From an uncultured Clostridia bacterium (GTDB lineage: Bacteria; Bacillota; Clostridia; UBA1381): a stretch of 32,000 bases of DNA. The notes beneath the pieces were generated by a model. The model was not told the DNA's origin. It worked only from the letters and a program-made list of their open reading frames with translations, and did not search any database. A program made the translations under genes and the position numbers. Shown here one piece after another: positions 4,612-8,659 of the stretch. The first letter of the stretch is position 1. Each line of letters opens with the position of its first letter. The stretch covers positions 19,696 to 51,695 of the forward strand of contig CANQIP010000010.1 in assembly GCA_947623955.1 (NCBI GenBank). Reading direction: 5' to 3'.

Positions 4612-4805
4612 TTAATTTATAAATCCGTTCTTAAACGCCTCGATTATTTGCGGGATGTTGTTTTTCAGTGCCGGAACGAGAAACGGCTGCGGCGCGTGTC
4701 CCGATGTGGTATAAAACCGACCGCCGCTGTAATACGTCCAATGTTTTTTGGTCGTGTGCGCGACGGACTTATCACCCTGCGCGCCCGTTCCAAATTCAAC
4801 ATATA
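4612..4805 (-). CDS. HK97-gp10-family head-tail/tail component, exon 2
   Basis: There is no start codon. The frame reads (L)YVEFGTGAQGDKSVAHTTKKHWTYYSGGRFYTTSGHAPQPFLVPALKNNIPQIIEAFKNGFIN*. The YVEFGT and PFLxPAL motifs are hallmarks of the gp10 family C-terminal half. Confidence 0.8.
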
Positions 4806-5012
4806 CATTTGTTATCGTAAAGGCTTTTTATCCTCTACTTCTTATAGTTTCCTATAAGTTCGGCGTACATCATAACAAAAAAGAACTTTAACCCAACAGT
4901 TCTTCTCTGTTTCGAGCACTCTTGGAGGGATTATATTTATTCACCCTCTACGCTCTACGGTGCTGTCCAGCCTTGCGCAATCTGGACAGTTACCTCGGTG
5001 TTGTCTTGATTT

Positions 5013-5810
5013 TCAAATATTTTTATTTGTTGTTGGTCTAAACAATCTTTCGCCGCGGTCACCTCGATGGTAGCGTCGAAATAATGTCGTTTTTGGTATC
5101 CCTGATAACTTTGCAGCCCTTGTTAGCGGTATTATTTCACCAGAATATTCCACCAAGTATTTTACGTTTTTTCTGTCCTCTCCCGGGTTTCGAAACAGCC
5201 TATTACCACGATCACCTCTATGATAGCGAGCATCAACTACCGATCTCGTCAATCTGGCTAATGCCGCAGCATCTGTCAAGCACATTTTTTCACCGTTATA
5301 ATCAACAATAATGTTGCTGCGACGGTTTCTACTCTGCGTGAAATTATCTGTCCAACGGCAATTAGAAGGTTCATAGTCTCCGCTATTATCAATACGGTCT
5401 ATTGATAAATCATCAGCATATCCGTTTAACATAGCCCAATCATAAAATGCTTGGAAATCATTTTTCCATTCATCGCACATCTTTATCCCGCGTCCGCCAT
5501 AGCTGTCATACCTTTCATTGTTGGAATTATAACATCTGCCTTTCATTCCTTGCCATTCATAGTAAATTCGTTTACCGCTCTGTTTATGTGAATGATTTTT
5601 TACAAGATTTATTCTATCCTGTTTTTTCTTCTCGCAACCGCATGATATAGTTTTTCCTTCTAACAACACATCACTGCGAATATTTTTCACGTTTCCACAA
5701 TCACATTTGCACTTCCAAAAGGAATGCTTTCCAGCAGTCGGTACAAATTCCAACACCGTCAGCCTACCAAATCGCTGTCCCGTAAGGTCTCTTCGGAATG
5801 ATCTGCTCAT
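5013..5810 (-). CDS. Intron-encoded homing-endonuclease-like DNA-binding protein
   Basis: 265 aa from MSRSFRRDLTGQRFGRLTV. It has the Cys cluster WKCKCDCGN...SCGC, then YGGRGIKMCDEW...LSIDRIDNSGDYEPSNCRW (HNH-like module without the usual His pair), then two C-terminal repeats ...RYHRGDRG(N/E)RLFR.P. The ATGA start overlaps the upstream stop. Confidence 0.6.
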   Translation of the reverse strand: MSRSFRRDLTGQRFGRLTVLEFVPTAGKHSFWKCKCDCGNVKNIRSDVLLEGKTISCGCEKKKQDRINLVKNHSHKQSGKRIYYEWQGMKGRCYNSNNERYDSYGGRGIKMCDEWKNDFQAFYDWAMLNGYADDLSIDRIDNSGDYEPSNCRWTDNFTQSRNRRSNIIVDYNGEKMCLTDAAALARLTRSVVDARYHRGDRGNRLFRNPGEDRKNVKYLVEYSGEIIPLTRAAKLSGIPKTTLFRRYHRGDRGERLFRPTTNKNI

Positions 5811-6085
5811 GCCTTCACCGCCTCCGGCATTTGCAATCCGCACTCAATCATTAAGCGCACTGCAGTTTGAAACCCTGTTATAAAGCCAAACTCTTCCATT
5901 GCCGCCTCACTGGTTGAAACAATGCTTTCTACCGTGTCAATATACATTTTTTCGCCTACCAGTTCTTTCAGACGCTCACCAACTTCATGCTGAACTTTCT
6001 CCGCCTTTTCCCATTCCAAACCGGTATTATTCTCGCCTGTTTCGCTAGTGTGTAAAAATATTTTTTTTATTTCCTTGTAATCCAT
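5807..6085 (-). CDS. Intron-encoded small hypothetical protein (92 aa)
   Basis: ATG 6085 is preceded by AAGGAGGA: MDYKEIKKIFLHTSETGENN...EEFGFITGFQTAVRLMIECGL. It is translationally coupled to the downstream ORF. Confidence 0.6.
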   Translation of the reverse strand: MDYKEIKKIFLHTSETGENNTGLEWEKAEKVQHEVGERLKELVGEKMYIDTVESIVSTSEAAMEEFGFITGFQTAVRLMIECGLQMPEAVKA

Positions 6086-6203
6086 TATAAAATCCTCCTT
6101 AAAAATTCTTGATTTCCCTCGGCGGATATGATATAATAGATTTATCATCCCGTGAGGGTTGAGTTTTATAGAACGTTGTTTTCGTTGGTAGCGGTGCAAC
6201 GTT

Positions 6204-6377
6204 CTATTTCTTTATTTCGACCTCTAACTTTTGTATCCCTCGACTAATAGCTTCAGTCTTATTAACGTCATTTTGCTCACAATAAGTATCAAGCGTTTGT
6301 TTATCTTTATCGCTTATTCTAATACTGATTTTATTAGGTCTTGGATTATCTGTCGGTCTTCCGGTTCTTGGACTCAT
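6204..6377 (-). CDS. Intron-encoded ribbon-helix-helix (CopG-like) protein, 57 aa
   Basis: Below the ORF-track size cutoff. RBS GTGAGGTG precedes ATG 6377: MSPRTGRPTDNPRPNKISIRISDKDKQTLDTYCEQNDVNKTEAISRGIQKLEVEIKK*. The basic N-terminus, beta strand (ISIRIS) and two helices fit the RHH pattern. Confidence 0.6.
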   Translation of the reverse strand: MSPRTGRPTDNPRPNKISIRISDKDKQTLDTYCEQNDVNKTEAISRGIQKLEVEIKK

Positions 6378-6404
6378 TTCATCACCTCACTTTTGTCTGG
6401 CATA

Positions 6405-6433
6405 ATTATATATTATTGCCCGACAAAAGTCAA
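6405..6433 (-). promoter_or_regulatory. Consensus sigma-A type promoter inside the intron
   Basis: The minus strand reads TTGACT-17 nt-TATAAT. It is overlapped by a 36-nt imperfect palindrome TTTGTCGGGCAATAAT-ATAT-AATTATGCCAGACAAA (6392-6427), a candidate operator. Confidence 0.65.
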
Positions 6434-6507
6434 GAGGTTTTTATAAAAATATTTAAAAATTTTAGATTTCACCGATTTTGCTCGATTTTTCATGCGCTAT
6501 ATGATTA

Positions 6508-6730
6508 ACGCATACTCAGAATTCGTTCCGATTACCGCGCTGTTGCCCTCGACCGTGCTTGTAATGCTGCCCTTTAGCCGTCCCGTACTATCTGGGCTGG
6601 GGCAATTCATCACCGCATCGGCGCGCACAACCTCACCCGCCATAGCGAGCGCGTTCTGTATCTTTCCGCCGCTTACAAGGTTCTGCAGCGCGTTTATAAC
6701 GCCGTCCACACCCTCAATACTTATTTGCAT
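6508..6730 (-). CDS. HK97-gp10-family head-tail/tail component, exon 1
   Basis: MQISIEGVDGVINALQNLVSGGKIQNALAMAGEVVRADAVMNCPSPDSTGRLKGSITSTVEGNSAVIGTNSEYA matches the gp10 family N-terminal half. The unspliced frame stops 3 codons into the intron (TAG 6499-6497). ATG 6748 or 6739 are alternative starts. Confidence 0.8.
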
Positions 6731-6792: not shown

Positions 6793-6951
6793 TTAGCTCG
6801 CTTTCTTCTCAGCCTGCAACCGCTGTTGTTTTTTTGCTATAACCTTAGCTTCAAGACGGGCAATTTCAGCGTCTAATTCCTCACTTGTCATGTTTTTGAT
6901 ATAATCAGGAATTATACCTCTGTCATCTGCGACAAATACTTCTTTTTCCAT
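6793..6951 (-). CDS. Small hypothetical protein (52 aa) coupled to the MuF-JAB gene
   Basis: Below the track cutoff. RBS GGGAGGTGG precedes ATG 6951, one nt after the MuF stop: MEKEVFVADDRGIIPDYIKNMTSEELDAEIARLEAKVIAKKQQRLQAEKKAS*. Confidence 0.5.
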   Translation of the reverse strand: MEKEVFVADDRGIIPDYIKNMTSEELDAEIARLEAKVIAKKQQRLQAEKKAS

Positions 6952-6952
6952 C

Positions 6953-8659
6953 TCATTCCACCTCCCAAAAATCTATATCACTGTTATCCTTCAATTTTGT
7001 CAAAGCCTTTATTTGTGCATCAAATTCAGAAAACCCTTGTTCTATGAATTTTTCGATATAAGCAGTATATAACGTGTTTTCAATATTTTCATTTGCGTTA
7101 TATCCAAAAATTTTACCGTTGTGACAAATAATAAAGCCTTGCTTATAGTTGTTTTTGTAACAAGCATTAAAGTCCGAAGCGCTTGGCGGCATACTATGTG
7201 GGTGTGTATGCAGAGCAATTATATTATCATGTCCTTTTAAGGCTTTCTTCATTGCTCCGGTATACGCAACCGCTCTTTCCGTTTGCTCATTTAAGGCGCT
7301 TATAATAACCTTTCCCGTATTGCCGTCAATCCAATACATATCCTCGTACAGCGTACCGCTTCTATGCTTTAGCATTTCCTTTGCCTTTGAATATAATACG
7401 CGGTTTACTTCATCGTTCGGTGTTAAATTGTCAAATTTACGCCGATAATTGCCGCTGTCGATATATGAGTTATTTATAAGCGTTGACTTGTTCCTTCCGT
7501 ATCTTTGGTTTTCGAGTGCCACCGTATCACCCCTCATATTCATTATATCATTTTTCACGGAATTGTCAACAGCTTTCGTCTTTTTCGTCCGCGCCTCTTT
7601 AACGTGCGTTTCCATAGCCGCCTTTTGTTCCGGTGTAAGGCTCGCCTGCCATTCCTCGAACGTCATATCGCCGTCAACTTTGTAATTTTTGCCCGTTGCG
7701 GGGTCGCGAGCGATACGCGTCTTTGATATAGCGTCCGCCATGATAGTTGTACAGCGGCAATTCGGGTGTATGGGCGGATAATTCACGCCCTCGCGTGCGT
7801 CGGTGACGTCAAACACCTTGCCATCCAGTCCGCCGCACGTCTCGCACGTCCGCTCCGACAGTGCCGCCACAAAACGGTATTTCTTTATCCCTATTTCGTC
7901 ATACGCCGCCTTTTGCCCCGTATTCATAAAATGCGCCGTTTCCGTCCGCACAAGCCGCGTAGTGGAATATAATACGCCGTCCGCGCCCTCGCTTTTGACG
8001 TATTCCTCTAACTGCGCCGCCATGCGGTTTACGCTGTGTCCCGCCATTATACCGGTAGTAACGGTGTTCTGTACCGCCTCGGTAAACCTGTCATTGTGGT
8101 TCCATATGCGGTCGCTGTAATTCGCGCCGTTCCACGGTTCTCGTAATGCCGCGTCAATCGCCCTCGTCGGCAGGAGCGAAAAATCTATACCGCAGTTTAA
8201 GCCTTTCGCGATATTATACACGTTCGTGTAATACGACTTCTGCAGCGTTCTCGTGTAAAACAGCTTATGCGCCGCAACCGCCGTATTTGCAACGCGTGTC
8301 ATTTCAGTGAGTATGCGCGACTTCACGCCCTCTAAGCGGCTTATTCGTGCGCCGTAAGCCTGCGCGTTTACCCTCGCGAGTATTTCCGCCCGCCGTTCGA
8401 TGTCCGTCGTTTCCTCGAACAGCTGCATAAGTTCGGCGTAGGTCTTGTCGCTTTCCGCCGCGTTCAGCAGCTTTACCGCCTCGCCCTCGGGAATGTCCAT
8501 AGCCACATACGCCGAGAACGTGTCGCGTATATCGGCGTTTATAGCCTCAATCGCCCGTTCATACTCCGCTATCGTTTCTTCGCTCAGCTTGTCCGCGCCG
8601 TTCTGTAATTCCTCTTCCAGTGCCGCCGCACGCGCCGCCCAATATGCTTTACTCCTCAT
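6953..8659 (-). CDS. MuF / SPP1-gp7-like minor head protein fused to a C-terminal JAB/MPN-like domain
   Basis: The N-terminal ~340 aa carry the MuF pattern (...RLVRTETAHFMNTGQ...ERTCETCGGLDGKVF...PPIHPNCRCT). The C-terminal ~170 aa carry ...YEDMYWIDGNTGKVII...NIIALHTHPHSMPPSASDF, a JAMM/RadC-like E...HxH...PSxxD signature (7172-7216). Confidence 0.8.
   Translation of the reverse strand: MRSKAYWAARAAALEEELQNGADKLSEETIAEYERAIEAINADIRDTFSAYVAMDIPEGEAVKLLNAAESDKTYAELMQLFEETTDIERRAEILARVNAQAYGARISRLEGVKSRILTEMTRVANTAVAAHKLFYTRTLQKSYYTNVYNIAKGLNCGIDFSLLPTRAIDAALREPWNGANYSDRIWNHNDRFTEAVQNTVTTGIMAGHSVNRMAAQLEEYVKSEGADGVLYSTTRLVRTETAHFMNTGQKAAYDEIGIKKYRFVAALSERTCETCGGLDGKVFDVTDAREGVNYPPIHPNCRCTTIMADAISKTRIARDPATGKNYKVDGDMTFEEWQASLTPEQKAAMETHVKEARTKKTKAVDNSVKNDIMNMRGDTVALENQRYGRNKSTLINNSYIDSGNYRRKFDNLTPNDEVNRVLYSKAKEMLKHRSGTLYEDMYWIDGNTGKVIISALNEQTERAVAYTGAMKKALKGHDNIIALHTHPHSMPPSASDFNACYKNNYKQGFIICHNGKIFGYNANENIENTLYTAYIEKFIEQGFSEFDAQIKALTKLKDNSDIDFWEVE

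Follow-up and report, generated by a model that had tools for sequence, protein, structure and literature searches.

A putative mobile group I intron with a three-gene cargo in an HK97-gp10-like gene of a Clostridia prophage

The DNA analysed here (the window) is a stretch of 32,000 nucleotides from an uncultured Clostridia bacterium (GenBank assembly GCA_947623955.1, contig CANQIP010000010.1, positions 19,696 to 51,695). Its minus strand carries the late module of a prophage, in which an HK97-gp10-like head-tail gene, for neck or tail completion, is split by a 1702-nt insert. The split gene follows a portal gene (10004-8649), a gene for a Mu-F-like minor head protein (8659-6953) and a 52-aa open reading frame (ORF), and it precedes the scaffold (4444-3902) and major capsid (3877-3053) genes, all on the minus strand. 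An earlier note on this DNA, made from the letters alone, had proposed that the insert is a group I intron. We conclude that it is very probably a mobile group I intron of the subgroup-IA type. The gene is organised as follows:

6730-6508, minus strand: exon 1 of the HK97-gp10-like gene, encoding MQISIEG...GTNSEYA, and the first base of a Leu codon
6507-4806, minus strand: insert, the putative group I intron, 1702 nt, last base G4806
4805-4612, minus strand: exon 2, beginning with the remaining UA of the Leu codon, then YVEFGTG...NGFIN, with the stop codon TAA at 4614-4612

The coordinates that the earlier note gave for the two halves, the second of them lacking a start codon, are correct. Exon 1 runs from an ATG at 6730, a start that agrees with full-length homologues such as P0001, to ...GAG TAT GCG T at 6508. 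Its frame continues into the insert as TA ATC ATA TAG and ends at 6499-6497, the in-frame TAG lying 11 nt into the intron. Exon 2 begins with TA TAT GTT GAA TTT GGA... at 4805, and upstream of YVEFGTG no ATG, GTG or TTG is found in the frame back to a TAA, nor any ribosome-binding site. As anticipated, ORF-based annotation misses the gene, for which the mechanical ORF list reports only a truncated 83-aa stump (6748-6497). Joining the exons at 6508^4805 (a caret marks a splice junction) gives a predicted ligated junction ...GAGUAUGCGU^UAUAUGUUGAA... and a 417-nt coding sequence (CDS) for 138 aa, in which the peptide across the junction is SEYALYVEFGTGAQGDK and the frame ...SEYALYVEFGT... is restored as the note had proposed. 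The spliced protein matches PF04883 above the cut-off, with E=1.1e-8. The insert is also poorer in G+C (39.0%) than exon 1 (55.2%), exon 2 (48.5%) and the whole window (46.7%), in keeping with the difference from the flanks that had been noticed by eye. A G+C content of only 33-40%, as low as that of the intron, is also seen at 6900-7350, the 3' end of the gene for the Mu-F-like minor head protein (568 aa), whose C-terminal ~150 aa may have been added by a separate acquisition.

A search of 5.8 billion proteins returned 131 relatives of the spliced protein. Most of them are 136-139 aa long and cover 96-100% of it at up to 93% identity, the best uninterrupted homologues being 93% identical over 100% of its length. 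Comparison with intron-less homologues, which had been suggested as a check of the junction, shows an uninterrupted ...EYAxYVEFGT... in related phages: the relatives read ...N(V/S)EYA-x-YVEFGTG... unbroken, with P, Q, I, V or A at x. The intron lies inside EYA^xYVEFG, the most conserved motif of the gp10-like family. The best match, P0001, belongs to a locus (L002) with the gene order of the window (Mu-F-like, 52 aa, gp10-like, DUF4355 scaffold, capsid). The intron-less CDS of L002 has 417 nt, exactly the length of the spliced CDS of the window, and reads ...GAGTATGCGCCGTATGTTGAATTT... at the site; the window exons differ from it by 17 synonymous and 9 non-synonymous codons, with no indels or frameshifts. 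Two other relatives are irregular. P0108 (112 aa) tracks the gp10 family through YVGFGTGSK and is divergent afterwards, which suggests a further interruption or frameshift a few codons downstream of the intron site, and in P0115 (129 aa) the C-terminal half of gp10 is joined to an unrelated N-terminus.

The splice sites are defined by pairing between the start of the intron and both exons:

6514-6491, minus strand: P1 hairpin, exon UAUGCGU (6514-6508) with guide GCGCAUG (6497-6491); U6508.G6497 at the 5' splice site
6503-6498, minus strand: P10 guide strand CAUAUA, in the P1 loop
4805-4800, minus strand: P10 target, the first six exon 2 bases UAUAUG, pairing with 6503-6498

The earlier note had recognised a guide, CATATAGCGCAT at 6503-6492, complementary to AUGCGU^UAUAUG. 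This complementarity is present in the sequence with U6508.G6497 as its sole wobble, and the final intron base is indeed a G, the omega-G at 4806. Counting the flanking U.G, P1 and P10 make up 13 contiguous pairs. When the first 40 intron bases are shuffled, 3 of 20,000 permutations give a run of this length. Maximisation of P1 plus P10, blind to the reading frame, leads to exactly the junction 6508^4805 and to an intron of 1702 nt.

Changes in the guide are matched by changes in the exons in L001, ROSA, phiCDKH02, L026 and L042. Locus L001, which was reached via P0119, a 77-aa stump ending in ...EYALI, contains a 79%-identical gp10 gene with an insert of 1655 nt and the same layout as in the window. 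Its P10 shows a compensatory change, the first base of exon 2 being C instead of U and the opposite guide base G instead of A. BLASTN against phage genomes found the 3' 200 nt of the intron, with 75-79% identity, in ROSA (S. aureus), other staphylococcal phages and phiCDKH02 (C. difficile). In ROSA and phiCDKH02, a truncated gp10-family ORF is followed by an HNH gene and then by the intron match. Junction and guide read GCGAU^...AACGUAU-GUCGC...G^AUACGUU in ROSA and AUAUGCCU^...AUG-GGGCAUAU...G^CAU in phiCDKH02; in both, a U.G marks the 5' splice site, the intron ends in G, and predicted splicing restores DYA-I-YVEYGTG and EYA-S-YVEFGH, respectively. Both are deposited as complete phage genomes and both have the intron in the gp10-like gene. 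Their exon 1 is annotated as a stand-alone ORF, ORF049 in ROSA (L003, NC_007058, locus 1461-2893) and phiCDKH02_37 in phiCDKH02 (L004, locus 1280-2835), and in both exon 2 and the ribozyme are unannotated. Altogether, at least 14 distinct gp10-gene copies restore (E/D)YAx(Y/L)V(E/N)(F/Y)G. The split codon provides the U of the U.G in intron-bearing alleles (UUA, UCA, AUA) and is CCG in the intron-less allele. In L049 a family member is inserted not at EYA^x but a few codons downstream in the gp10-like gene (...WVEYGTGI^...), a position that represents a second homing site of the intron lineage in the same motif.

A P3-P9 core, which the earlier note had also called for, can be modelled, and its helices covary strongly in a large family. 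From 5' to 3', the segments that follow P1 are:

between P1 and P3, minus strand: J1/3, GAAAAA; no P2
6485-6480, minus strand: P3 5' strand, UCGAGC, pairing with 4917-4912; 6 of 6 pairs covary
6479-6476, minus strand: J3/4, AAAA
6475-6470, minus strand: P4 5' strand, UCGGUG, pairing with 5000-4995
6469-6468, minus strand: J4/5, AA
6466-6464 with 5006-5004, minus strand: P5, UCU with AGA, extended by AUUUUU with GAAAAU; closes L5, the cargo loop
5000-4995, minus strand: P4 3' strand, CACCGA
4994-4992 with 4961-4959, minus strand: P6, GGU with ACC, a pairing added by RNAalifold
4989-4982 with 4970-4963, minus strand: P6a, CUGUCCAG with CUGGACAG, loop AUUGCGCAAGG; 8 of 8 pairs covary
between P6 and P7, minus strand: J6/7, GUA
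4955-4949, minus strand: P7 5' strand, G(A)GCGUA with A4954 bulged, pairing with UACGCC at 4867-4862; putative guanosine-binding helix
4948-4925, minus strand: P7.1 hairpin, GAGGG with CCCUC, 14-nt loop UGAAUAAAUAUAAU; 5 of 5 pairs covary
between P7.1 and P3', minus strand: segment CAAGAGU
4917-4912, minus strand: P3 3' strand, GCUCGA; crosses P7 to form a pseudoknot
4911-4898 with 4887-4874, minus strand: P8, 14-bp hairpin; all 5 counted pairs covary
4873-4868, minus strand: J8/7, AUGAUG
4867-4862, minus strand: P7 3' strand, UACGCC
4858-4841, minus strand: P9, CUUAUAG-GAAA-CUAUAAG; 4 of 6 pairs covary
4838-4832 with 4823-4817, minus strand: P9.1, GUAGAGG with CCUUUAC; 6 of 7 pairs covary
to 4806, minus strand: tail GAUAACAAAUG, ending in the omega-G

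The GAAA-capped 7-bp stem to which the earlier note had drawn attention (CTTATAG-GAAA-CTATAAG in the DNA) is P9 of this model. Covariation was analysed on a MAFFT alignment of 26 members, 4 with their L5 ORFs excised and 22 natural ORF-less copies. In this alignment 96.0% of cells are paired, against 30.9-43.2% when the 3' partners are displaced by 1-3 columns; 36 of the 52 pairs show changes on both sides, and the covariation score of 0.603 compares with 0.179 for shuffles, none of 500 shuffles reaching any of these measures. Covariation is seen at every pair of P3, P6a, P7.1 and P8, with 96-99% of cells paired in P3 and P8. P4 is paired in 100% of cells and only its outer pair varies (G-U, G-C, A-U). 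ROSA and phiCDKH02, whose copies had been found by BLAST, have exactly the same P7.1 loop. RNAalifold, whose scope does not include the pseudoknot, independently predicts P3, P4, P5, P6, P7.1, P8 and P9.1.

The covariation of P3 (UCGAGC with GCUCGA, 6 of 6 pairs) identifies the long-range stem of UCGGUG with CACCGA as P4 and the site of the ORFs as L5. It rules out two candidates for P2, this same stem and a local hairpin of AUCGA with UCGGU. With the ORF-bearing stretch in L5, the 5' part of the ribozyme consists of P1, P3 and P4 and has no P2. A pairing of CGUAGAG, in the P7 region, with the 3' strand of P9.1 was also discarded, as it is broken in phiCDKH02, which keeps the local P9.1 hairpin. 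P8 was considered as a terminator and rejected: its U-run pairs inside the stem, and a terminator scan calls none on the minus strand. In subgroup IA2, domain 7 is described as comprising the hairpins P7.1 and P7.2, and P9 as being extended into P9.0, P9.1 and P9.2 (PMC4227781). Here there is a single hairpin between P7 and P3' (P7.1, 4948-4925), and P9 is accompanied by P9.1 only. Because one domain-7 hairpin stands where IA2 has two, the ribozyme is IA-like and is given no subgroup assignment.

To delineate the family we searched IMG/VR for exact matches to a pattern of 26 specified bases, formed by the P7 5' strand and the P7.1 loop, and found it in at least 120 loci. A single copy is present in the window according to nhmmer with a family profile. 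Many members are ORF-less, with 70-110 nt from P3 to P7 and an L5 of 10-40 nt at the position of the window's cargo, and such relatives keep the same core down to a length of 227-270 nt. The family ribozyme also splits large-terminase (TerL) genes of several types, NrdD genes and dUTPase genes, in which predicted splicing yields long ORFs with Pfam matches; further targets resemble tape-measure proteins by motifs alone and have no Pfam match. One viral contig (L071) carries two copies of the core pattern, at 869-899 and 5695-5725, ~4.8 kb apart.

Within L5, the intron of the window carries a promoter and three ORFs:

6433-6405, minus strand: sigma-70-type promoter, TTGACT-17-TATAAT, 11 of 12 matches; also in L001
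6389-6430, minus strand: 42-nt palindrome over the promoter, likely operator
6377-6204, minus strand: ORF1, 57 aa, putative ribbon-helix-helix (RHH)/CopG-like repressor; PHROG 876 'transcriptional repressor', E=8e-14
6168-6207, minus strand: perfect 11-bp inverted repeat with an 18-nt loop, in the gap between ORF1 and ORF2
6085-5807, minus strand: ORF2, 92 aa, with a good ribosome-binding site; its stop overlaps the ORF3 start (ATGA)
5810-5013, minus strand: ORF3, 265 aa, putative HNH-type homing endonuclease; PHROG 374 'HNH endonuclease', E=4e-74

ORF1 resembles RelB and DUF6290 weakly, and its matches in Pfam and NCBIfam lie below the cut-offs. The inverted repeat downstream of it could serve as attenuator, processing site or second operator; in L001 a hairpin of other sequence occupies its place. 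Homologues of ORF2 form only two clusters among the 5.8 billion proteins; it matches DUF6809 weakly and has no informative match in Pfam, NCBIfam, PDB or PHROG. ORF3 has no match in Pfam or NCBIfam and no relative in PDB; its relatives occupy L5 in the gp10-site copies (43 loci). An RHH gene lies within the intron only in the window and in L001. From homology and position, the RHH protein probably autoregulates its synthesis via the palindrome over the promoter, and the ORF3 product presumably cuts intron-less gp10 alleles, thereby driving homing. In the td intron of phage T4, the gene of the endonuclease I-TevI lies in a peripheral loop (P6a), has its own promoter within the intron and is repressed at an operator overlapping this promoter, the repressor being the endonuclease itself. 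In contrast, a separate RHH gene precedes the endonuclease gene here, and the cargo lies in L5.

Homologous modules are also found outside introns. L127 contains a free-standing homologous operon (130-1511) between the end of the large-terminase gene and the start of the portal gene, with a promoter, an omega-type RHH gene, a homologue of ORF2 that is 78% identical and an HNH gene that is 49% identical. The N-terminus of the L127 portal resembles that of the window's portal. A related promoter and CopG/RHH module occurs in the Streptococcus phages Javan326 (L125, 2480-3892) and MismyG (L126, 2480-3924), where a small ORF and a gene for a KilAC antirepressor come after it. It occupies the equivalent genome position, flanked by the minor-capsid gene and the scaffold gene; no ribozyme sequence was found around the promoter-RHH module in either phage. 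A promoter leader similar to the window's, AAAACCTCTTGAC, is shared by L127 and Javan326. The cargo of the window's intron is thus composite and is in circulation outside introns as well. It is conceivable, although we hold it to be rather doubtful, that the intron swallowed a complete free-standing endonuclease operon and now houses, inside a late structural gene, a repressor-controlled moron that is expressed in the prophage independently of the host gene. If this were the case, the RHH protein would keep the endonuclease low in lysogens, ORF2 would be accessory or host-directed, and the locus would offer a snapshot of the traffic of homing endonuclease genes between the free-standing and the intron-borne state.

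The following course of events is proposed on the basis of established group I chemistry, from which the guanosine attack, the P10-guided ligation and the 138-aa product are taken. On transcripts of the late operon, the ribosome would halt at the TAG that ends the exon 1 frame 11 nt inside the intron; such an early stop is typical of phage group I introns, where it stops ribosomes before the core (PMC2504315, PMC3984707). The RNA would fold into P1, P3, the P4-P5-P6 domain, P7 with P7.1, P8, P9 and P9.1. An external guanosine in P7 would attack after U6508, held in the U.G wobble of P1, whereupon P10 would align exon 2 and the exons would be ligated after the omega-G4806, giving the 138-aa protein with ...SEYALYVEFGT.... 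Transcripts from the internal promoter have no P1, P3 or P4 and could therefore not splice; they would serve only the expression of the cargo.

The sequence displays the full architecture of a group I intron, with a guide that fits, and both host gene and cargo are intact; splicing itself is predicted from sequence, fold and family distribution. Several observations weigh against the insert being a functional mobile intron. P7 is invariant in all 26 aligned sequences, as is most of P4, so that neither shows covariation there; for P7 the invariance is partly due to the search pattern, which fixed its 5' strand, and the support for P7 consequently comes solely from analogy and from the fact that the helix can form. 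The translated L5 cargo of 1.45 kb, together with the absence of P2, could slow folding. ORF3 has no HNH match in Pfam or NCBIfam. An automatic P1/P10 caller gave an open frame in 32 of 69 copies, as compared with 24% for random junctions; this crude caller, whose use was restricted to gp10-site copies and a small number of genes that were checked, leaves the splice sites outside the checked cases provisional. Finally, the Rfam model RF00028 was silent on the 2.7-kb region, on the 261-nt 3' core (E<=10) and on the whole window at its gathering score, which is 50 bits and a criterion of detection rather than of mechanism. At the same score, ten loci with family members gave no family match to RF00028, and the ORF-less member in L011 reached only 16.8 bits (E=0.05).

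In L011, nonetheless, RF00028 aligns P3, J3/4, P4, J4/5, P5, P4', P3', P8, J8/7 and P9 to the bases that we had assigned, and it aligns the bases homologous to the window's P7' to its own P7'. The shortfall in score is probably due to the P7.1 insertion and to the divergent P7 (GCGUA paired with UACGC). The search with group I covariance models that the earlier note recommended would therefore have given a misleading negative. Low-scoring matches to snoRNA and sRNA models in the Rfam scans are due to chance. In L024, a family member (5449-5600) is accompanied by a different, canonical group I intron (5716-5990) that passes RF00028 with 63.7 bits; the two introns, ~120-270 nt apart, possibly lie in one gene.

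The silence of Rfam on the window would also be expected of a dead gene, in which the insertion of an HNH or moron cassette left two pseudogene fragments and the RNA elements are incidental or belong to a decayed, non-splicing intron. The free-standing promoter-RHH-ORF2-HNH operon in the terminase/portal gap of L127 and the intergenic promoter-RHH module of the Streptococcus phages are consistent with such an event. We nevertheless consider it most improbable, since the cassette lies precisely within L5 of a complete ribozyme whose every helix is intact, the guide fits both exons, the exons are undamaged (17 synonymous against 9 non-synonymous changes) and the same arrangement is found in the complete phage genomes ROSA and phiCDKH02. 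It is still harder to believe that each half is translated on its own and that the two then associate into a split protein, without any splicing of the RNA. Annotators do call exon 1 a gene of its own (P0119, ROSA ORF049, phiCDKH02_37), but between the TAA upstream and YVEFGT the frame of exon 2 offers neither an ATG, GTG or TTG at which translation could start nor a ribosome-binding site, and the break falls inside the most conserved motif of the family. A group I fold that splices only in vivo, assisted by a protein cofactor or a host chaperone, appears unlikely: the very large insert in L5 and the missing P2 point in this direction, but nothing in the sequence requires a cofactor, and the ORF-less relatives of 227-270 nt have the same core.

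As a mobile group I intron, the insert joins a known kind. Group I introns have been described in the head gene of Tuc2009, in tape-measure, terminase and tail-tube genes of B. cereus prophages, in staphylococcal phage tail genes and in mycobacteriophage capsid and tail genes (PMC2504315, PMC3706429, PMC4124061). A table in PMC2504315 has an entry for ROSA, lacking a host gene, among the sequences that BLASTN matched to the catalytic RNA of an intron in a B. cereus prophage terminase gene. The documented structural-gene introns and this listing show that the kind, and even the lineage, was already known. The earlier note was right that introns exist in phage structural genes, but the find is less unusual than it had implied, the lineage being abundant and the ROSA copy already on record. 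The introns in B. cereus prophage terminase and tape-measure genes and the ROSA element (Tourasse & Kolsto 2008, PMC2504315), which are of subgroup IA and come from phages and prophages of Gram-positive hosts with low G+C, belong to the same lineage and have the same helices; as here, they have an early in-frame stop, hit the most conserved stretch of the gene and carry an HNH-type ORF in a peripheral loop. The present intron differs from them by its host, a Clostridia/Oscillospiraceae-like prophage judging by the names of homologues, by the lack of P2 and by a cargo of three genes rather than one. The introns of the Lactococcus Tuc2009 major head gene and of Cluster J mycobacteriophage capsid and tail genes (PMC3706429) likewise lie in late structural genes, are invisible to ORF annotation and sometimes carry an endonuclease gene. 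The comparison with these covers their arrangement; the target here is instead an HK97-gp10-like head-tail gene. IStrons, which combine a group I intron with IS200/IS605, also have an IA-type ribozyme, a multi-gene mobile cargo and, as predicted here, an insertion harmless to the host gene; their cargo is a transposon after P9.2 at the 3' end (PMC4227781), whereas here an endonuclease operon lies in L5. The free-standing HNH cassettes and morons of L127, Javan326 and MismyG are related modules, but they are intergenic and need no splicing.

A search of a literature library found no paper pairing 'group I intron' with 'HK97 gp10'. What is new is the host phage, the recognition of EYA^xYVEFG in gp10-like genes as a site of repeated homing, the extent of the family and the promoter-bearing cargo of three genes, which is the only unusual feature of the intron itself. 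Since ORF callers report a stump and an orphan fragment, and RF00028 stays below threshold, an abundant lineage is systematically missed. Head-tail, terminase, NrdD and dUTPase genes are mis-annotated as truncated, and the published ROSA ORF049 and phiCDKH02_37 are affected. The occurrence of the same endonuclease operon in two states, in an intron loop and free-standing, bears on the movement of homing endonuclease genes. Knowledge of group I catalysis is unchanged; the finding matters chiefly to annotation and to the question of how homing-endonuclease cassettes evolve.

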